A stretch of DNA of 64,000 bases, from positions 149,957 through 213,956 of the forward strand of contig JBGTBM010000007.1 of NCBI GenBank assembly GCA_041749335.1, in the 5' to 3' direction. A model generated the notes under the pieces. That model was not told the DNA's origin and searched no databases. It worked only from the letters and a program-made list of their open reading frames with translations. How positions within the stretch are numbered: position 1 is the stretch's first letter; every line of letters begins with the position of its first letter. The stretch is from Patescibacteria group bacterium. Lineage in GTDB: Bacteria > Patescibacteriota > JABMPQ01. Of the stretch, positions 13,366-57,980 are shown piece by piece. Made by a program: the position numbers and the translations under genes.

Positions 13366-16300
13366 CTATTTTTTCTTGAATAATTTATTTGTTATGCTTG
13401 TAAGACTATAGTATATAACTGGTGTTATTAATAATGTTAGAATAGTTGAAATTATTAGTCCCGAAATCATGGCAACACCCAAGGGTTTCCAGAAAGATAT
13501 TGTTACTGTTAAAGGAAAAATTCCTCCTATGGTGGTTATTGAAGTTGATAATACAGAACGTATTCTAAGTTTTGTTCCTTCTTTAACCGCTTTTTTTAAA
13601 GTTTTTCCTTCATCTCTTAGCTTGTTAAAGCGGTCTAGTAGTACAATTGAATCATTTACTACAATGCCCGCTAATGCAATAATTCCCAATAAACCTAAAA
13701 AGCTGATAGGGGTTTTTGTTAGATAGAGCCCAAAGAATACGCCGATCATGGAAAGGGGAATAACAAGCATAATAATAAAAGGCTGAAGAAAAGATTTGAA
13801 TTGAAAAACCAAAACCATAAAGATCAATATTAGGGCGAAGATAAAAGCTTGCTTAAAATCGGAAAAAGCGTTATCTTCTTCTTCAAATTCTCCCCGAAAA
13901 GTGATAGCGTCGATATTTATTCCTAGTTCATTGAGCTTATTGTCATTGTAATAATCTTTGATTCTTTTAATTATTTCATTTGAATCCACATTATCTTTGA
14001 GTGATGCCTTTACTTCTACGTATCGTGTATTATCATAATGTTTGATGCTTTTTAACTCATCTACTTTTTCAACTTTACTTACATCATTTAGTTTAATTGG
14101 TCCGGTCGGGGAATTAAAAATATTGATATTTTTAAGCTGATCAATTTTATTAGTGTCAATTAGCGTATTTAAATACAGATCAACGTTTTTATTGGATTCT
14201 TTGTCAAATACTTCACCAATTTTTTCAGGTTGATAAATATTTCTGATTATTTGAGCAACTTGTACTGAAGGAACGCCATAAAAATTTAGCTTATTGCGGT
14301 CTATTTGAATATTGATTTGTGGAGATTTATCATTTTGGACGCCGTCGCTAATTTTATTTATTTCATCTTGATTTCTAAGAAAATTTGCTAAATCGATAGC
14401 TGTATTCTTGGCAATGCTTAAGTCGTCATTTGCAATTTGAACTTCAACGGGGAATTCAGCCTTGGGCGGACCTAAACTAAAATTTGAAGCTTGAATTTCT
14501 ACATCTTTTATATTTGCTAATTTATCCTCGATTTTATCGATTACATCCGTGCTGGTAAGTTCACGTTTCCGCATATCAATCAATTTTACAATTAAGGAAT
14601 CTTGGCTGGAAGCAGATGCAAAAGGACCGCCAAATATAGAGAAAGGTGCATAGCTAACCATTATTTTGGAAATTTCAACATCTTCAATAAACAATTCTTC
14701 TATTTTAGCTCCGATTTGGTTTAAAATTTTATCTTTAGTTTCTTCAGATGTGCCCGGAGGATATTTGGCGGATATTTGAAAAAAATCCATATCATCTTCG
14801 GCTGGCCAGAGATCAACAATAACTCTGCCTGAAGCCGGCAATGATATGCTGGCAGCAAATAATCCGAGTACTATTAATATGATCGCAATTTTTTTAAAAC
14901 GAGAATTTAAAATATTTCCAAGCCTGTTGATATATTTATTAACTAGCTTCCATTCGATATTGCCTTCTTGATCAATTTTATTTTGTTGGCGGTGGGATAA
15001 TTTTAAAAGGGTTTTTCCCAGGAATGGGATTATGCTAAGCGATATTAACAATGCTCCTGATAAAACAGTAATAACGGTATAAGGAATAAATTTTATAAAT
15101 TCCCCGGTAATTCCACCCATCATTGCTATTGGAATAAATACTAAAATTGTTGTAAGCGTCGAAGTGATAATCGGTCCGCCAACATCAGATACGGATTTTA
15201 TCGCCGCATCCTTTTTGCTCAGTCCGATTTGTAAATTATGCTGAATGCCTTCGACTATCACAATTGTAGTATCTACCAGAATTCCCAGAGTCAATATCAA
15301 GGAAAATAGAGTAACGGTATTCAATGTAAGATTAGTAAAACTAAAAACGAGAAAAACAAATAAAAGTGATAATGGAATAGACAAAGCTATTACCAATGAG
15401 CTGCGCAATGAAATAAAAACAAATAATACAATGAAAATTATTATTAGGCCTTGCCAAGCACTTCTAATCAGGTCCCCAATTTGTTGTCTGGCTTCATCTG
15501 CTTCGTCATAAACTAGAATTGCTTCGATATCTTGATCAAGCTTATTCTTTTTTAATTCAGATAATTTTTCCGTGATCTCATCTGAAATTTGAATTAGGTT
15601 TGAATTCTTAATCGTAGTGATAGAAATACTTAAGCTTTTATTAGAAATTAACTTTCCATCTTTTAAATAACCGGTTCGGGGCATGCGGTTGTCGGTCTGG
15701 TAAATATCTTTTATTGATGCTACGTCTTTAAGTAAAATCGGTTGATTCTTATTTGAGCCAACTTTAATTTCTTTAATTTCTTTATAATCTTTTATTCGCC
15801 CATCGACTTGAATTGGATAACTTTTATCATTTTCTTGAAAATATCCTCCAGGAAGACTAATGTTGTTGCTTTTTATGGCGTTGGTGATGTCTTGGTAGTT
15901 CAGCTGGTACTGGGAAAGTTTGTTAAAGTCTATTTCTATGTTAATTTTTCTTTCAGCGCCTCCCAAAATATTAATTTCCTTAACGCCCCCTACGCTATTT
16001 AATTCATCCTTAATTATCTTGGCGTTTTCAGTTAATTGTTTGTTATTATATGGACCGACTACGTTTATTAGTATGCTCAAACTGCTGGCATCAAATTTTA
16101 CCACTGAGGGATTTTCAGCATCATCGGGAAGTAGATCTTTAGCATTTTCAATATTTTGTCTTAATTTATCTACGCTTCTGTCAATATCTGCGTCGGCGTT
16201 AAAGGTTATTGTTATAGCCGAATAACCCTCCATTGAAGAGGATTCTATGGTTTTAACGTTTTCGGAGCTGCTGGCCGCTTTTTCCAGCGGATTGGTTATT

Positions 16301-16506
16301 TTCTCTTCTACATCCTGCGGAGTAGCACCGGTATAAATGGTATTAATGCCGGCATAGGGTATATCTACTCTCGGCATTCCTTCTTTTGGTAATTTAAAAA
16401 CACCTAATATCCCGCCGACAACCATTAAAATAATTATTATTAAAGATATTTGGTAATTTTTGATAAAAAATTTGGCGAATTTGCCAACCGGCTTAATATT
16501 ATTCAT
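13366..16506 (-). CDS. RND superfamily transporter (AcrB/MMPL-like)
   Basis: 1046 aa with two TM bundles (around residues 340-500 and 880-1040) separated by large soluble loops. The N-terminus 'VKNYQISLIIIILMVVGGI' is AcrB-like. Confidence 0.7.
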   Translation of the reverse strand: MNNIKPVGKFAKFFIKNYQISLIIIILMVVGGILGVFKLPKEGMPRVDIPYAGINTIYTGATPQDVEEKITNPLEKAASSSENVKTIESSSMEGYSAITITFNADADIDRSVDKLRQNIENAKDLLPDDAENPSVVKFDASSLSILINVVGPYNNKQLTENAKIIKDELNSVGGVKEINILGGAERKINIEIDFNKLSQYQLNYQDITNAIKSNNISLPGGYFQENDKSYPIQVDGRIKDYKEIKEIKVGSNKNQPILLKDVASIKDIYQTDNRMPRTGYLKDGKLISNKSLSISITTIKNSNLIQISDEITEKLSELKKNKLDQDIEAILVYDEADEARQQIGDLIRSAWQGLIIIFIVLFVFISLRSSLVIALSIPLSLLFVFLVFSFTNLTLNTVTLFSLILTLGILVDTTIVIVEGIQHNLQIGLSKKDAAIKSVSDVGGPIITSTLTTILVFIPIAMMGGITGEFIKFIPYTVITVLSGALLISLSIIPFLGKTLLKLSHRQQNKIDQEGNIEWKLVNKYINRLGNILNSRFKKIAIILIVLGLFAASISLPASGRVIVDLWPAEDDMDFFQISAKYPPGTSEETKDKILNQIGAKIEELFIEDVEISKIMVSYAPFSIFGGPFASASSQDSLIVKLIDMRKRELTSTDVIDKIEDKLANIKDVEIQASNFSLGPPKAEFPVEVQIANDDLSIAKNTAIDLANFLRNQDEINKISDGVQNDKSPQINIQIDRNKLNFYGVPSVQVAQIIRNIYQPEKIGEVFDKESNKNVDLYLNTLIDTNKIDQLKNINIFNSPTGPIKLNDVSKVEKVDELKSIKHYDNTRYVEVKASLKDNVDSNEIIKRIKDYYNDNKLNELGINIDAITFRGEFEEEDNAFSDFKQAFIFALILIFMVLVFQFKSFLQPFIIMLVIPLSMIGVFFGLYLTKTPISFLGLLGIIALAGIVVNDSIVLLDRFNKLRDEGKTLKKAVKEGTKLRIRSVLSTSITTIGGIFPLTVTISFWKPLGVAMISGLIISTILTLLITPVIYYSLTSITNKLFKKK

Positions 16507-34946: not shown

Positions 34947-36122
34947 ATGAAAAAAAATTATCAGGAAAAAGTAATTTCCGGAGCGGAAGCGGTAGCAGAA
35001 GCCATGCGCCAGATAAATCCGGACGTGGTTGCGGCTTATCCAATTACGCCTCAAACCCATATTGTGGAAAAGTATTCGGAATATGTCGCTGATGGCATAG
35101 TAGATACCGAGTTTGTTTCGGTCGAATCGGAACATTCCGCTTTAAGCTGCGTGATTGGGGCGCAAGCGGCCGGAGCTCGCTCAATGACAGCGACATCATC
35201 TCAAGGCCTGGCATATATGTGGGAAGTTTTGGGAGTGGCTTCGGGAATGAGGCTACCAATATTAATGCCGGTGGTAAATCGCGCCTTATCTGCGCCGATT
35301 AATATCCACTGCGACCATTCTGATTCAATGGGAGCCTCTGATCAGGGCTGGATACAAATATTTTCTGAAAATAATCAGGAAGCATATGAAAATATGCTAC
35401 TTATGATGAAATTAATTGAAAGAGGAAATATTCATTTACCGGCCATGGTGCTTCAGGATGGTTATGTTACCAGCCATAACGCAGAGAGAGTAAGAATATA
35501 TAACGATAAATTAGTGAAAAAATTTATCGGAGAATATAATCCATATCAGCCGCTATTGGATTTTAGCCATCCGGTTAGCTATGGGCCGATAGTGCTGCCT
35601 GATTATCAAATGGAAATCAAAAGGCAGCAGGTTGAAGCGATGGATAATGTAATTAAAGAATATAAAAATATAGCCAATGAATTAAAAAAGATAACCAATC
35701 ATGATCATTCTTTATTTGAACAGTATAAGCTTAAAGACGCCAAGGCCGCCATTGTGGTCAGTTCGTCAACCGCCGGTTCGGTAAAATATGTGGTTGATAA
35801 ATTAAGGCAAAAAGGTAAAAGAGTGGGATTGTTAAAAATTAAATTATTCCGGCCATTTCCTTATGGGGAAATTTTTAAATCATTATTTGGCATTAAAAAT
35901 ATAGCAGTGCTTGATCGCAGCATAAATTATGGCAGCGATGCCGCAATTTTTGATGAGGTGCTGTCAACCTTTGCGAAAAATAATCAGACGATAAAAATTC
36001 AGAGTTGCATTTTTGGTTTGGGCGGCAGGGATATTGATTTGGAACAGATTGAAATGATATTTCAACAATTATTGGCGGGGGAAGTCAGCCAAAAAATAAA
36101 ATACATCGGATTAAATGAATAA
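34947..36122 (+). CDS. porA: 2-oxoacid:ferredoxin oxidoreductase alpha subunit
   Basis: 'ISGAEAVAEAMRQINPDVVAAYPITPQT' matches the POR domain I. Confidence 0.8.
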   Translation: MKKNYQEKVISGAEAVAEAMRQINPDVVAAYPITPQTHIVEKYSEYVADGIVDTEFVSVESEHSALSCVIGAQAAGARSMTATSSQGLAYMWEVLGVASGMRLPILMPVVNRALSAPINIHCDHSDSMGASDQGWIQIFSENNQEAYENMLLMMKLIERGNIHLPAMVLQDGYVTSHNAERVRIYNDKLVKKFIGEYNPYQPLLDFSHPVSYGPIVLPDYQMEIKRQQVEAMDNVIKEYKNIANELKKITNHDHSLFEQYKLKDAKAAIVVSSSTAGSVKYVVDKLRQKGKRVGLLKIKLFRPFPYGEIFKSLFGIKNIAVLDRSINYGSDAAIFDEVLSTFAKNNQTIKIQSCIFGLGGRDIDLEQIEMIFQQLLAGEVSQKIKYIGLNE

Positions 36123-36825
36123 AAATAAAAATTCTTATCCTAAAATAATTGCTCATCGGGGAGCATCTTTTTTTTCTAAGGAAAACACCTTAAAATCTTT
36201 TCAAAGAGCTATCGAACACGGGGCGGATAAGGTTGAGCTGGATGTACAAATGACTAAAGACAATAAGCTAATTATTTTACACGATGTTCATATTGATAGA
36301 ATATCCCAAGGAACAGGATTAACCAGAAATTTTACCTTGGAAGATATTAGAAAAATTGATATATTCGGCAAAGAAAAAATTCCTACTTTGGATGAAGCTC
36401 TGGAGTTATTGTTAGACAAGGTCGGTGTTGTCTTAGACCTGAAGCGGCCGGATGTAGTTCCGTATATTTTGAAATATTTAAAAAATTACAAATTAAAAAA
36501 AAGTTGCATCGTTTCCTCTTTTAACAAGGAGGTGGTAAAAAGCATTAAACATTTTGATCATGAAATTAAAGTTGGCTTGCTTTGTTGGCGGCCCAGTGGA
36601 AGATTAATCAAGTTTTGTAAAAATAATAATATAGATTTTATTCACCCCAATTATCTTTTCTTAAATAGAAGGTCATATCGAAAAATAAAAAAGTCTAAAC
36701 TGGGAATAAATGTTTGGACTGTCAATTATAAAAGAAATTTACGCAAATTATCAAAGATGCAAATTGATGGAATAATAACCGATCGACCCTTGAGAGTAAG
36801 GAGAATTTTAGATAATTTTTATTAA
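36115..36825 (+). CDS. Glycerophosphodiester phosphodiesterase
   Basis: 'IIAHRGAS' and '[17 protein letters not shown]' match GDPD catalytic His/Glu-Asp motifs. Confidence 0.8.
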
Positions 36826-37272
36826 ATTTGCCATTTCAATCGCGGATAAAGCGGCCTCTCTGCCTTTATTGCCATGCTTTGTTCCCGCTCTTTCAATTGC
36901 TTGTTCAATATTTTCTGTTGTCAAGATGCCCATTGATATGGGCATATTATAATCTAGGCTAATTTTTGCAATTCCCTTGGTGGCTTCGCTGGCAATAAAA
37001 TTGAAGTGTGGCGTTGCTCCTTGAATAATGCAGCCTAAACATACAATCGCGTCATGATATCTTTTTTCCGCTAATTTTTTAGCAGCTAATGGAATTTCAA
37101 AACCTCCCGGTACCCAAACAACATTGATATCATCGGGATTAACTCCATGCCTAACCAAAGTATCAGTACAGCCTTCCAATAATTTATTGGTGATAAAATC
37201 ATTAAAACGTGATATTACAATTCCGATTTTTAGGTTATCAGCGACGAGTTTGCCTTGGGTATTGTTTATCAT
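36808..37272 (-). CDS. ribH: 6,7-dimethyl-8-ribityllumazine synthase
   Basis: '[20 protein letters not shown]' and 'VPGGFEIP' are RibH motifs. The 3' end overlaps the convergent GDPD by 18 nt. Confidence 0.85.
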
Positions 37273-37286
37273 ATTATTTATGTTAT

Positions 37287-37925
37287 TTATATAAATCCAT
37301 TTTGGGCAAGTAATTTAAAATCAATTCCGGCGGAGCATTTATCTTTTAAAGCATTGTATGTATATTTTGCGATTAAATCAGTTTCAATATTTACCAAATT
37401 ACCAATAATCAGCTTGCCAAGGTTGGTATTTTCCAAGGTATGCGGGATTGCCGCGATCCGAATAACGTTTTTATTAATTTCAGCAATAGTTAAACTTACA
37501 CCATTGACCGCGATTGAGCCTTTAACTGATAAAAATTTCAGTAGATCTTGCGGTATATTAATATAAAAATTTTTAGATCCATTATTTTTCGCAATATTCC
37601 TGATTTTCCCGATTCCATCAATATGTCCTGTGACATAATGCCCCGAATTTTCTTCTCCAAATTTGGCGGCATTTTCTAAATTTACTCGATCGCTGCTCCT
37701 TAAAAATCTTATAGTGGTTTTATTTTGAGTTTCTTTAATGGCTTCAAAGGTAAAGATATTGTCTTCAATATTTATTATTGTTTGGCAAATGCCATTTATC
37801 GCTATGCTGCCGCCAATAGATAATTTATTTAAAATTTTATTAGTCCAAACATAAAAACGAATATTGCCGTTGATATTTGATGTCTTCTTTATTATTCCCA
37901 ATTCTTTAATAATTCCGCTGAACAT
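37287..37925 (-). CDS. ribE: Riboflavin synthase alpha chain
   Basis: '[13 protein letters not shown]' and the repeated lumazine-binding '[10 protein letters not shown]' half-site. Confidence 0.8.
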
Positions 37926-38298
37926 ATTTGCGTAATATATTTTTTGAATTAATGCAGTCTTTATTAATTTGAAGCTTTAGGTCGTTGATATTTTCAAATT
38001 TCATTATTTCTCTAATCTTTATAATAAATATTATTTGTATTTTTTTAATTGGCGGCAAAACATTTTTATCTAATAAGTGGGATTCAATCGTTTTTCGGTT
38101 ATTTTTAAAGGTAATGGCATTTCCCGCAAAGGTAGCTGCCGGATAGTAATTATTCTTAATTTTAATTAGCGATGCCCAAACTCCGGTACCTATATTTTTA
38201 TAATCAGAAGAATAATATCTGACATTTAAGGTAGGTAATTGCAATAATTTGCCTCTTTGGTAGCCATTAATAATATTTCTGTGTATTCTATAATGCAT
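37906..38298 (-). CDS. Monofunctional riboflavin kinase (RibF C-terminal-type domain only)
   Basis: 'GYQRGKLLQLPTLNV' (GxGxxLGFPTAN-like) and 'ESHLLD' motifs. At 130 aa there is no FAD-synthetase domain. Confidence 0.6.
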   Translation of the reverse strand: MHYRIHRNIINGYQRGKLLQLPTLNVRYYSSDYKNIGTGVWASLIKIKNNYYPAATFAGNAITFKNNRKTIESHLLDKNVLPPIKKIQIIFIIKIREIMKFENINDLKLQINKDCINSKNILRKYVQRNY

Positions 38299-41450: not shown

Positions 41451-42446
41451 ATGAAATTATCTATAAAATACGTATTAGGCGCTGTTATCGCGCTTTTTAT
41501 TATTTCTTTTTTGGGAATAAATCCTATTTTTGCTCTTGAAGTGAGCCCTATTCAGCCCGCCGAGACAATAAGTTATCAGGAGCCCGTAGGCGTTAATAGT
41601 TCGCTAAGTGCTACTTTACCGAGCTATTTTTTCCAGGGTATGCACGTAGGAACGCTTGATGGCAGCGGGGGAGTGTTATTTGCCAATGGCACTATTATTA
41701 ATGTAACGCGGACAAAAAAAGATAATAAACCTATCCCAATTACTATGGGAGATGATTTAAGAATAGATGGTGAAATTTGGCGGGGACCAAAAAAGGGAAC
41801 AGAGGATGGAATGCCTTTGAAAATATCCGATACTATGGTTCCTACTATAAATGATATCAACGATCTGGGTGATTCAACAAGAAAATGGAAAGATCTATAT
41901 TTATCAGGAACGATATTTGGTAATAATGCAATATTTAGTGGAGATATTGATTTTTCTGATGCCAATATAGGCGGTTTAAGTATATCAAATGCAGATACTT
42001 TAGATGGAATTGACTCTACCGGCTTTGCGCTTAATCCGCACGATCATGACAGCAGATATTTACAGTTAACCGGAGGAACTTTAACCGGACTAACTTCTGT
42101 GGATGCAACTTTAAGGGTTAAAAGCGGTGGTTATACATTGGGAGGCGTTTCTATTACTACAGACGGAGATATTATGGCTGCTGGAAATCTAACATTAGAT
42201 GAGAATATAAATGCGAATTCTTTAAATTTAACGGGAAATGTTGATAGTAAGGGAGGAGCAATATTAGGTACTGGACCAAATAATGTATTAATTACTGGAA
42301 GTGGCAATGCTTATTTTAATGGTAAAATAATTATTCCTAATGGACCTGCGATCCCCGTAGGGAGTTGCATTATTGGGGAAATATATTTAGAAACAACCAC
42401 TCCGCAAATTTATGGATGTGCTGCTTCAATATGGCAAGCCCTGTAG
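41451..42446 (+). CDS. Secreted hypothetical protein, paralog family A (copy 1)
   Basis: A signal peptide, then a conserved block shared with 47384..48457: 'FNGTI.NV', 'GDD.RIDG.IW.GP.KG', 'DLG.S...W..LYL.G..GNN'. The C-terminus has two Cys. Confidence 0.6.
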   Translation: MKLSIKYVLGAVIALFIISFLGINPIFALEVSPIQPAETISYQEPVGVNSSLSATLPSYFFQGMHVGTLDGSGGVLFANGTIINVTRTKKDNKPIPITMGDDLRIDGEIWRGPKKGTEDGMPLKISDTMVPTINDINDLGDSTRKWKDLYLSGTIFGNNAIFSGDIDFSDANIGGLSISNADTLDGIDSTGFALNPHDHDSRYLQLTGGTLTGLTSVDATLRVKSGGYTLGGVSITTDGDIMAAGNLTLDENINANSLNLTGNVDSKGGAILGTGPNNVLITGSGNAYFNGKIIIPNGPAIPVGSCIIGEIYLETTTPQIYGCAASIWQAL

Positions 42447-46984: not shown

Positions 46985-47206
46985 TTATATGAATAAGTTG
47001 ATGAAGGCGATGCCTAAAAATGATACCGCCAAAACCACGGTTATAATGAAGATGGTTTTTTCGGCGCCTCGTCGGGCTTTAAAAATATTGCCTTCTCCGC
47101 CTCCGCCGAATGTTTGCGATAAGCCGACTCCTTTATTTTGAATAAGGATCACGGCAATAAGCGCGATGGATATAATTATTTGGATTATACTGATTGCTTT
47201 ATTCAT
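46985..47206 (-). CDS. secG: Preprotein translocase subunit SecG
   Basis: 73 aa with two TM helices and the 'QNKGVGLS..FGGGG' glycine loop. Confidence 0.75.
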   Translation of the reverse strand: MNKAISIIQIIISIALIAVILIQNKGVGLSQTFGGGGEGNIFKARRGAEKTIFIITVVLAVSFLGIAFINLFI

Positions 47207-47298: not shown

Positions 47299-47327
47299 TT
47301 GATTATTTTTTAAAAATATGTTACAAT
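47299..47327 (+). promoter_or_regulatory. Sigma70-like promoter (-35 TTGATT, 17 nt spacer, -10 TACAAT)
   Basis: About 55 nt upstream of 47384. Followed by the same A-rich leader motif as the copy-1 paralog. Confidence 0.5.
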
Positions 47328-47383
47328 TTAAATAAGAAATTGAAAGACTTTTTCTATAAAAAACAAAAATAAAAATAAAAAAT

Positions 47384-48457
47384 ATGAAGAAACTAATTAT
47401 GCTTTTTGGCGCGATGGCTCTGATTTTTAGCACATTATTTGTGCTAACAGCAGTAGCTTTGGCGTCAGATGCCGATTTATTGCAGCCGGCATCAACAGTC
47501 ACTTATAATGAGGATTTGAACGTGAATGGTACCGGAAGATTCAATTCCGTTTATATCGGATCCGAAGGAGTGGGGGGAGTAACTTTCTTTAATGGAACGA
47601 TCGTAAATGTGGGAGAATATGTGCCGGTTACTTTTGGCGATGATGTTCGTATTGATGGTCAGATCTGGGGCGGACCCAATAAGGGCAATGTTTCCGATCA
47701 GGCTCTAAAAATCGCCGATACTCTGCTTCCCGGGCTTACCAACGCCAATGATCTTGGATCTGACAGTTTAAAATGGAGAAATCTTTATTTGGCCGGCGTT
47801 TTATACGGCAATAATGTAAATTTGGATGGAACGTTAAGTGCTACGGATCTGCTTTATTCCGGTAATCTTTATGGCAACCATGCAAATTTAAATGGAACAT
47901 TGACAATGCAGCCTGCTGGAGATTCGCCGAAAACCCGCATAACTTTATCTAATCAATTAATAACACAAAATCAAGCCGAAAATAGCGCTTTCAAAGCGCA
48001 AGGTTTACGTTTTGAAAATTATGCTGAAAAATACGATATGAGCTTTGGAAAACAAGTGATTACGAATTTTGGTAATTCAGGCCAAGATATCGTTTTACAT
48101 GGCTTGCAGGGAATGAACGATAATCAGACAAATCTCTTATATATGGGATTGGTCAAGGGATACCCGGATTATGACTCAGTTTTATGGAGTGCTGATATAT
48201 CCGGCGAAGATAATGCCAGATTGGGTATTTTAGCGAATGATATTGATATCAAAGCAAGGTCAATCTACATGGAAGATTTGAAAACAATGCGTTTTGAAGG
48301 GGTTGATGTAAAAGATAATGGGGATACAAAATGCGAGGTTAAAATTGAGGGTGAATGGAAGGATGTTATGCCCGGTACTTTGTTGCGAGGGAATGATGGA
48401 ATTAATACCAAGTTGCGTTATTGTGAATCCAATAAGTGGGAAGATCTATATCCATAA
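47384..48457 (+). CDS. Secreted hypothetical protein, paralog family A (copy 2)
   Basis: Signal peptide 'VALA|SDAD', the same conserved N-terminal block as 41451..42446, and repeated 'GN..NL.GTL' beta-strand-like repeats. Confidence 0.6.
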   Translation: MKKLIMLFGAMALIFSTLFVLTAVALASDADLLQPASTVTYNEDLNVNGTGRFNSVYIGSEGVGGVTFFNGTIVNVGEYVPVTFGDDVRIDGQIWGGPNKGNVSDQALKIADTLLPGLTNANDLGSDSLKWRNLYLAGVLYGNNVNLDGTLSATDLLYSGNLYGNHANLNGTLTMQPAGDSPKTRITLSNQLITQNQAENSAFKAQGLRFENYAEKYDMSFGKQVITNFGNSGQDIVLHGLQGMNDNQTNLLYMGLVKGYPDYDSVLWSADISGEDNARLGILANDIDIKARSIYMEDLKTMRFEGVDVKDNGDTKCEVKIEGEWKDVMPGTLLRGNDGINTKLRYCESNKWEDLYP

Positions 48458-48484
48458 AAAAAATAATTTTAAAAAACAGGTCCA

Positions 48485-48512
48485 TCCGGGATCTGTTTTT
48501 TTATTGAGTTAA
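48485..48512. terminator. Bidirectional intrinsic terminator between paralog copy 2 and uvrC
   Basis: A 9 bp stem AACAGGTCC/GGATCTGTT, with an A-run upstream and a T7 run downstream. Confidence 0.55.
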
Positions 48513-57602: not shown

Positions 57603-57980
57603 TTATTTACCTTTTGGTTTTTTTAGGCCAATCAAGAAAAGAATACCGGCTATCAGGAAGGGGAAAGTTAAAATAAAAATAGATAGCGCTTCATTTAAAC
57701 CAATGGTTAACCAAGTAAAAATTATTAAAATTAAACCGGAAATAATAATCGTTAGGCTTCCCGACCTGGCATTTTTCCAAGATATAATTACTCCGGTAAT
57801 ATTCAATACCATTAGCGTAGTGAGCAAAAATTTTGCCAGGCTTAAATCTTTTTCTGCGGATATTGCTTGCACCAGCAATGTTGCTCCCCAAAAAATCGCA
57901 GCTAAAGCGCCGATTATTTTCCCCAGCAAGTTAAAAATATTTTGCGTTAAAGCTGTTTTTTTTGTAAAATTATTTGGCAT
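57603..57980 (-). CDS. Hypothetical small membrane protein
   Basis: Four predicted TM helices. Preferred over the overlapping + strand ORF because of its hydropathy periodicity and the downstream terminator. Confidence 0.45.
   Translation of the reverse strand: MPNNFTKKTALTQNIFNLLGKIIGALAAIFWGATLLVQAISAEKDLSLAKFLLTTLMVLNITGVIISWKNARSGSLTIIISGLILIIFTWLTIGLNEALSIFILTFPFLIAGILFLIGLKKPKGK

Follow-up and report, generated by a model that had tools for sequence, protein, structure and literature searches.

The gene at positions 47384 to 48457 of a 64,000-nt stretch of DNA from a Patescibacteria group bacterium (contig JBGTBM010000007.1; the whole stretch analysed is here called the window) encodes one of two paralogous secreted-type proteins, named copy 1 and copy 2 in their order along the window. 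Copy 2 is best read, with a confidence slightly above even, as a chromosomally fixed member of a Patescibacteria family of modular, Sec-exported, phage-tail-fibre-like proteins, for which a role in adhesion or recognition is likely. No description of this family was found in the literature; it is undescribed, lineage-restricted, multi-copy and modular.

Architecture of copy 2 and paralogy with copy 1

The initial annotation had placed copy 2 at 47299-48457. The only long open reading frame (ORF) within this interval is 47384..48457 on the forward strand, so the end was right and the start was not: the ORF begins at 47384, and 47299 coincides with a promoter-like site upstream. An identical protein is already on record (P0001), and syntenic orthologs of copy 2 are found in two related genomes (L002 and L004). 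The features of the protein are as follows, with structural assignments from an AlphaFold2 (AF2) model and its predicted local distance difference test (pLDDT) values.

47384..48457, forward strand: coding sequence of copy 2, ATG start, 357 aa, coordinates including the stop codon
47384..47464, forward strand: putative Sec-type signal peptide, aa 1-27 (MKK, hydrophobic core, AVALA/SD; sequence rules and hydropathy)
47480..47788, forward strand: conserved family N-domain, aa 33-135 (invariant or near-invariant columns in alignments of 45 and 131 sequences)
47711..47830, forward strand: phage tail-fibre/tailspike-like stalk motif, aa 110-149 (D.h.P....N..DLGS...RW..hY...; family profile against PDB, and PHROG)
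47789..47908, forward strand: short repeat stalk, aa 136-175 (three 11-residue periods GN.hNL.GTL..)
47909..48454, forward strand: orphan C-terminal head, aa 176-357, beta-rich, fast-evolving, found in five proteins
48332..48454, forward strand: Cys317...Cys347-x4-Trp352 beta-meander (AF2 pLDDT 79-90)

The N-terminus of copy 2 has, by rule, the features of a Sec signal, namely a basic KK, a hydrophobic stretch of 19 residues (mean Kyte-Doolittle 2.39) and then ALA/SD, and aa 2-26 form a helix in the AF2 model. A small-x-small sequence was also detected within 12 residues upstream of the conserved xQPA motif in 118 of 123 family members. Cleavage after residue 27 is predicted, although aa 1-27 could alternatively remain as an uncleaved membrane anchor.

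The domain that follows reads LQPAS...GVGGVTFFNGTI.N...PVTFGDDVRIDG.IW.G..KG...LKI.D...P....NDLGS...W.NLY in copy 2, and across the family it takes the form GVGGVTFFNGTI.N ... PVTFGDDVRIDG.IWRG..KG ... LKI.D...P....NDLGS...RW..LY over about 105 residues, covered by no Pfam or NCBIfam model. A hidden Markov model (HMM) of this N-domain matched exactly two genes of the window, copy 2 (E 1e-56) and copy 1 (E 1e-47). By BLASTP, copy 2 shows 37% identity to copy 1 over aa 7-171 (E 2e-34), with nothing beyond. Therefore, the earlier claims that copy 2 is the second member of the copy-1 family, and a secreted-type paralog with an N-terminal half in common with it, were both borne out. No similarity between the two copies was found at the DNA level, indicating that the duplication is old. 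Neither protein is matched by any Pfam or NCBIfam model; for copy 2, the Pfam search was carried up to E 10 and a single-sequence PDB search was also empty. The paralog is located as follows.

41451..42446, forward strand: copy 1, 331 aa, with shared signal peptide and N-domain, a tail-fibre-like middle and a canonical Cys-Cys-Trp (CCW) end

The middle of copy 1 (TLDGIDSTGF...H.HDSRYLQLTGG) may resemble a common tail-fibre motif.

The repeats quoted in the initial annotation, GNNVNLDGTLSA and GNLYGNHANLNGTLTM, do occur in copy 2 (aa 147-179), where they make up three 11-residue periods of the form G-N-x-h-N-L-x-G-T-L-x. The extended beta-solenoid proposed from them did not hold, as the repeat region spans only about 33 residues, Pfam repeat models either gave no match or scored far under their thresholds, and the AF2 monomer, the structure prediction that had been proposed as a check, shows no solenoid. 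Even for copy 1 the Pentapeptide_3 model reached 13.5 bits against a cut-off of 27, and relatives were also below threshold. A beta-solenoid repeat protein of the pentapeptide or bactofilin type was therefore rejected for copy 2, which gave no match and has only the three periods. Within the stalk, positions 47798-47929 of the window hold a 22-residue (66-nt) internal duplication of the LYGN.hNL.GTL unit that is present in copy 2 only and lacking in its orthologs. Its two DNA units agree at 37 of 75 aligned columns, which suggests that this duplication is also old, and no tandem repeat was detected at the DNA level by Tandem Repeats Finder.

The AF2 monomer of copy 2 has a mean pLDDT of 71.8 and a predicted template modelling score (pTM) of 0.35. 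Residues 40-170 are modelled at pLDDT 80-90 as an extended chain to which DSSP assigns no secondary structure. Such a confident but structureless model is typical of a chain that would fold only within an intertwined oligomer, which it suggests and does not prove.

Phage-fibre motif, family distribution and known systems

When the family profile was compared with PDB sequences, only phage proteins were matched, and always by the last ~40 residues of the N-domain. The matches were as follows.

6eu4_A: tail spike, E 5e-4
8i4m_e: cyanophage P-SCSP1u fibre gp28, E 1.3e-3
4uw8_A: T5 L-shaped tail fibre, E 0.025

In the T5 protein, pb1, the matched segment sits immediately before the S74 chaperone. 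Copy 2 itself matched PHROG 36881 (E 3.7e-4) and the tail-fibre PHROG 7121 (E 0.024), and the best match among its relatives was that of P0115, which carries tail-fibre stalk repeats (PHROG E 3.6e-16). Among 131 family members, Pfam detected End_tail_spike in six, K1-lyase_C in two, and Peptidase_S74 and Gp53-like_C in one each. The Peptidase_S74 chaperone is that of P0025 (7.5e-11), and a second S74 member, P0145, came from the profile search; both S74 and non-S74 tips thus occur in the family, copy 2 being of the non-S74 type. In relatives with the duplicated unit, End_tail_spike fell short of its cut-off of 25 bits, scoring 16.9-24.4, and was matched only at profile positions 99-156 of 160; no such match was obtained for copy 2 with Pfam. 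Judging from these alignments, the similarity is that of a shared motif and not of the whole domain.

The identity of copy 2 as a tail fibre or tailspike with an S74 chaperone was considered and rejected, as no C-terminal Peptidase_S74 domain was found (Pfam, E up to 10). The string SDQALK at aa 104-109 (window 47693-47710) fits the S74 catalytic pattern SDxxxK with no S74 domain after it. Strings of this type were found anywhere in the protein in only 8 of the 131 members, and that of copy 2 is probably a chance occurrence.

Among 5.8 billion proteins, 272 relatives of copy 2 were retrieved with a single sequence as query, and a profile search gave 319. Every one of them is unnamed or annotated as hypothetical, and those with an organism name come from metagenome-assembled genomes (MAGs) of Patescibacteria or Parcubacteria. 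Species-representative genomes yielded 125 relatives, nearly all from Patescibacteria, including Kerfeldbacteria and WWE3; the few found in MAGs with other taxon labels could reflect errors of binning or labelling. Some genomes hold at least 10 family loci in dispersed positions. Same-strand arrays also occur, with up to six genes in 7.4 kb (L009 2230-9594), and with three genes at each of two further loci (L007 2674-5983 and L027 4001-8730).

The same N-terminal layout, consisting of signal peptide, near-invariant xQPA motif and ~105-residue domain, was seen in all 131 members examined, whereas their C-terminal heads fall into 24 classes distinct by BLAST. The family is therefore constant at its N-terminal end and variable at its C-terminal end. 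Some members (P0010 and P0127-P0129) have the N-domain in tandem duplication. Across 78 family loci no conserved neighbour or partner gene was found, the commonest neighbour being a secreted NHL-repeat protein of ~1,000 aa present at 12 of them (for example, L053 466-3684).

The closest described system is the superfamily of mosaic adhesive trimer (MAT) fibres of Bdellovibrio bacteriovorus, which combine a signal peptide, a conserved beta-rich N-domain of ~100-130 aa present in every paralog, phage-like intertwined trimeric stalks (beta-helix or beta-prism), and S74 and non-S74 tips, and for which surface localisation and prey-glycan binding were demonstrated (Caulton et al., 2024; PMC10769870). 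As in MAT fibres, the proteins described here are cellular and non-phage, with a signal peptide, a shared N-domain (~105 aa), a phage-like stalk and swappable C-terminal tips. Members that end in S74 and members that do not, many paralogs per genome, and producers that live on other bacteria are likewise common to both. In contrast, the two systems belong to different phyla and envelope types, the proteins have ~300-400 aa here compared to ~1,000 aa in MAT, and the MAT capping-loop motif V-G-G/N-pi-x-x-P-x-x-x-L was found in none of the 131 members by regular expression, even in a relaxed form. Trimerisation, surface location and glycan binding, shown for MAT, are properties that the copy-2 family would putatively have. 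The family was not filed as a MAT member since it lacks the capping-loop motif, is about three times shorter, and has an N-domain likened to that of MAT at the level of layout.

The likeness to phage fibres and tailspikes of the S74 type (K1F endosialidase, T5 pb1 4UW8, phiAB6-type 6EU4 and P-SCSP1u 8I4M) lies in their stalk segment, which aligns with the family motif D.h.P....N.hDLGS...RW..hY and also corresponds to positions 114-156 of Pfam End_tail_spike, as well as in those relatives that have tail-fibre stalk repeats or, in two cases, an S74 domain. The placement is different, as the motif is distal in phage fibres, right before the chaperone, but is part of the proximal conserved domain in the copy-2 family, without any chaperone in copy 2. 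Also unlike phage fibres, copy 2 has a Sec signal peptide and a chromosomal housekeeping context, and its N-domain was not found in viral collections.

Multi-paralog surface adhesins such as the trimeric autotransporter adhesins likewise combine a constant and a variable distal module with family expansion and tandem arrays, but copy 2 has no YadA-type anchor, LPXTG or known adhesin domain, and its family has the constant module at the N-terminus and the variable one at the C-terminus. Its assignment as a trimeric autotransporter adhesin was rejected, as Pfam detected no C-terminal YadA-type beta-barrel anchor.

Divergence of the C-terminal head

The copy-2 head class has five members (P0001, P0002, P0003, P0005 and P0006). 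An exhaustive search of 1.84 billion (1.84e9) representative proteins with the head profile returned only P0003, a member of the class itself, and nothing was found in PDB either by sequence, including a profile search with the C-terminal half, or by fold.

The rate at which this head changes was analysed by comparing identities and non-synonymous substitutions per site (dN) between the window and the two related genomes, L002 and L004.

Neighbouring genes: identity 70-93%, dN 0.07-0.23
Copy-2 N-domain: identity 64-69%, dN 0.26-0.28
Copy-2 C-terminal half: identity 29-31%, dN 0.90-0.95

Between L002 and L004 the N-domain of copy 2 has 89% identity (dN 0.07), compared to 49% (dN 0.49) for the C-terminal half. 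The dN of the copy-2 head is thus 3-6 times that of its own N-domain and of the neighbouring genes.

At the copy-1 locus, the syntenic orthologs (L002 1-807 and L004 2160-3041) have N-domains with 62-68% identity by BLASTP and three unrelated heads: the CCW type in the window and in P0122/P0123, a type ending in WQYIGY in L004/P0124, and a type ending in FMIIVY in L002/P0125. On the evidence of these alignments, the copy-1 locus is a case of tip replacement in place.

The initial annotation had suggested diversification of a surface-exposed distal region. The divergence itself is evident in the C-terminal half of copy 2 (29-31% against 64-69%) and in the head swaps of copy 1, but positive selection cannot be claimed, as synonymous divergence (Nei-Gojobori dS) is saturated, with values of at least 2 or undefined for every gene and pair compared, and the nearest relative of copy 2 among the 5.8 billion proteins, the identical record P0001 apart, has 53% identity. 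Mutagenesis of the diversity-generating retroelement type was a rejected candidate: when both genes were compared with the 64-kb window by blastn (word size 7), no off-diagonal match exceeded 32 nt, a reverse transcriptase not having been searched for.

The C-terminal halves of copies 1 and 2 had also been described as completely different. Neither BLAST nor a more sensitive profile-profile alignment (hhalign) revealed similarity between their regions after the N-domain, and the same was true when copy 2 was compared by hhalign with ten head classes, copy 1's and nine more (probability at most 3.8%, E at least 0.011). No homology of the halves was thus found by sensitive alignment and the description stands overall, although a terminal Cys...Cys-x4-Trp module is possibly common to both.

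The C-terminal Cys pair reported previously was confirmed as C317 and C347, the only two cysteines of copy 2, conserved in all five orthologs, and a Cys317-Cys347 disulfide is probable. Both AF2 models end in a meander consisting of a strand, a strand with the Cys and a strand with the Trp, at residues 333-337, 342-348 and 351-354 in copy 2 and, with the same layout, at 311-314, 319-324 and 327-330 in copy 1. The end module of copy 1 (P..C...G.h.h......h..C....W..h) was also terminal in 17 of the first 120 family members listed, and its tail aligns by hhalign with canonical CCW tails at a probability of 93% (E 2.8e-7). For the last 16 residues of copy 2 (TKLRYCESNKWEDL), the corresponding values were 69% and E 4.3e-5 over 16 columns. 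A plain HMM of the Cys-Cys-Trp tail, derived from the remaining family members, did not separate either protein of the window from noise (E 2.2 and 6.4 in a search space of 1,000), and therefore the idea of a shared tail depends on hhalign and on the matching layout of secondary structure. It is possible, though not established, that copies 1 and 2 have in common a CCW module of 16-30 residues, which ends ~15% of the family and whose profile had no match in PDB.

Proposed role, alternatives and genomic surroundings

The architecture described above suggests how copy 2 might work. The signal peptide would carry the chain across the membrane, and the ~105-residue conserved domain, which ends in a segment homologous to part of the stalk in phage fibres and tailspikes, would provide a proximal oligomerising base, probably a trimer, attached to the envelope of the producer. 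From it, the short stalk of 11-residue repeats would project the lineage-specific C-terminal head, closed by the disulfide and acting as the ligand-binding tip. Diversity could be generated by gene duplication, duplication of stalk units, rapid divergence of the tip and its wholesale replacement, as at the copy-1 locus. By analogy with MAT fibres and phage receptor-binding proteins, the protein is likely to serve the cell in adhering to, or recognising, either a surface polymer or another cell, be it partner or host.

A broader proposal, put forward tentatively and with less than even confidence, is that Patescibacteria recruited modules of phage receptor-binding fibres into Sec-exported, multi-paralog short surface fibres whose swappable, fast-evolving tips set the host cells or surface glycans to which these ultrasmall episymbionts bind, as an independent counterpart of MAT in a monoderm-like lineage. 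Host attachment of uncultivated Patescibacteria is poorly known beyond a few Saccharibacteria, in which type IV pili and unnamed adhesins are implicated (PMC10633639). If the proposal were true, the copy-2 head would be a previously unseen binding fold, the N-domain a sequence handle for candidate host-recognition genes in metagenomes, and the tip class a marker to predict host range, and the family would represent a second independent case of cellular organisms reusing phage receptor-binding architecture.

Several points weigh against copy 2 being such a fibre. Its own link to phage fibres is a single ~40-residue motif with modest E-values, its AF2 monomer is poor overall (pTM 0.35) with no significant fold match, and its trimerisation, surface location and binding are predicted properties. 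At 300-400 aa, the proteins are far shorter than known fibre adhesins, the MAT capping loop is missing from the 131 members, and the 78 loci revealed no envelope-anchoring partner or conserved neighbouring gene. Finally, with saturated dS, the fast evolution of the tip could be due to relaxed constraint and not to adaptive diversification.

Alternatively, copy 2 could be a structural protein of the envelope that builds or decorates an S-layer or the cell wall, with its variable C-termini reflecting antigenic or phage-evasion variation. The signal peptide, the multi-copy nature of the family and its surface-type variability are compatible with this, as are those family neighbours that are envelope genes (a polysaccharide ABC exporter, an O-antigen-ligase-like protein, glycosyltransferases and PilB). 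We nevertheless regard it as unlikely, since Pfam detected no SLH, S-layer or cell-wall-binding domain, the head classes are unrelated folds instead of variants of one lattice-forming unit, and the S74 and tail-fibre stalk modules indicate binding fibres. Were copy 2 only a variable envelope protein, the family would be an ordinary lineage-specific one.

It also seems improbable that copy 2 is a non-fibrous protein (a lectin, an enzyme or an effector, for instance) secreted freely into the medium or into a host, in which the N-domain would serve as a secretion or processing pro-region. Its small size (~330 aa when mature) would suit such a protein, the orphan beta-rich head, with a disulfide near its end, could fold by itself as a globular domain, and processing might take place at the conserved LQPA that immediately follows the signal peptide. 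However, the libraries searched yielded no catalytic or toxin domain, the N-domain carries a fibre-stalk motif and is found in tandem in some members, much like a structural repeat, and relatives exist with long tail-fibre stalk repeats.

Homology of the motif and stalk to tail fibres and tailspikes, together with the S74 domains of P0025 and P0145, could also mean that copy 2 is a phage-derived receptor-binding protein serving a phage, a prophage remnant or a tailocin, or acting as a decoy or superinfection-exclusion factor. Both copies nonetheless sit among housekeeping genes whose order is conserved in three genomes, and no phage genes lie close by. No relative was found when N-domain patterns were compared with 2.9 million viral contigs of IMG/VR, nor by tblastn against 50,697 GenBank phage records, and on these same grounds a prophage origin of copy 2 was rejected. 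The presence of up to at least 10 dispersed copies in a small genome also argues against a phage-derived protein, as does the Sec signal peptide, which is atypical for virion fibres because these assemble in the cytoplasm. This alternative is thus considered very unlikely. A decaying, functionless paralog whose C-terminal half drifts under relaxed constraint, as its high dN and a head without detectable relatives might suggest, is hardly credible, given that none of the five orthologs has a broken reading frame, that their length, Gly/Cys/Phe positions and Cys pair are conserved, that the position is kept in three genomes, and that the gene has a confident AF2 terminal module and a dedicated terminator.

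The reading of copy 2 as a chromosomally fixed fibre-like protein is accompanied by the following features around the gene.

46985..47206, reverse strand: secG, divergent neighbour of copy 2 (TIGR00810, E 1.8e-16)
47299..47327, forward strand: promoter-like site TTGATT-17 nt-TACAAT with TG extension, a consensus match 57 nt upstream of the ATG
48471..48505, strand undirected: hairpin with flanking A-run and T-run (-15.8 kcal/mol, z -4.1)

The adjacency to secG stated in the initial annotation was thus correct, the two divergent genes being separated by a common intergenic region of 177 nt; secG is part of the conserved housekeeping block and lies outside the copy-2 system. The promoter-like site is a match to consensus only, as the number of such sites in the scanned region was not above the shuffled expectation. 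For the hairpin, none of 200 shuffles folded equally well, although a simple terminator scan did not list it. It is likely a bidirectional terminator serving copy 2 and the convergent uvrC, and as it divides these two genes, copy 2 appears to form a transcription unit of its own.

The surroundings in the window are housekeeping genes, namely RNase HII, a methyltransferase, a phosphoglucosamine-mutase-like gene, copy 1, trpS, RNase J, SBP_bac_5, secG, copy 2, uvrC, rpoB and rpoC, and G+C ranges from 31 to 42% along the window. The order copy1-trpS-rnj-SBP5-secG-copy2-uvrC-rpoB-rpoC is kept in L002 (a 551-kb contig) and in L004. A PMT_2 glycosyltransferase gene lies between the copy-1 ortholog and trpS in L002 (1220-2986) and has no counterpart there in the window or in L004.

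Elsewhere in the window, genes for lumazine synthase, a riboflavin-synthase-like protein (Lum_binding), riboflavin kinase and the alpha subunit of pyruvate:ferredoxin oxidoreductase were found at 36808-38298 (reverse strand) and 34947-36122 (forward strand); the vitamin biosynthesis genes are of note in what otherwise looks like a reduced Patescibacteria genome. Directly downstream of rpoC, a small protein encoded at 57603-57980 (reverse strand) matched DUF7670 (E 6.5e-10), and an ORF of 1046 aa at 13366-16506 (reverse strand) is among the largest of the window.

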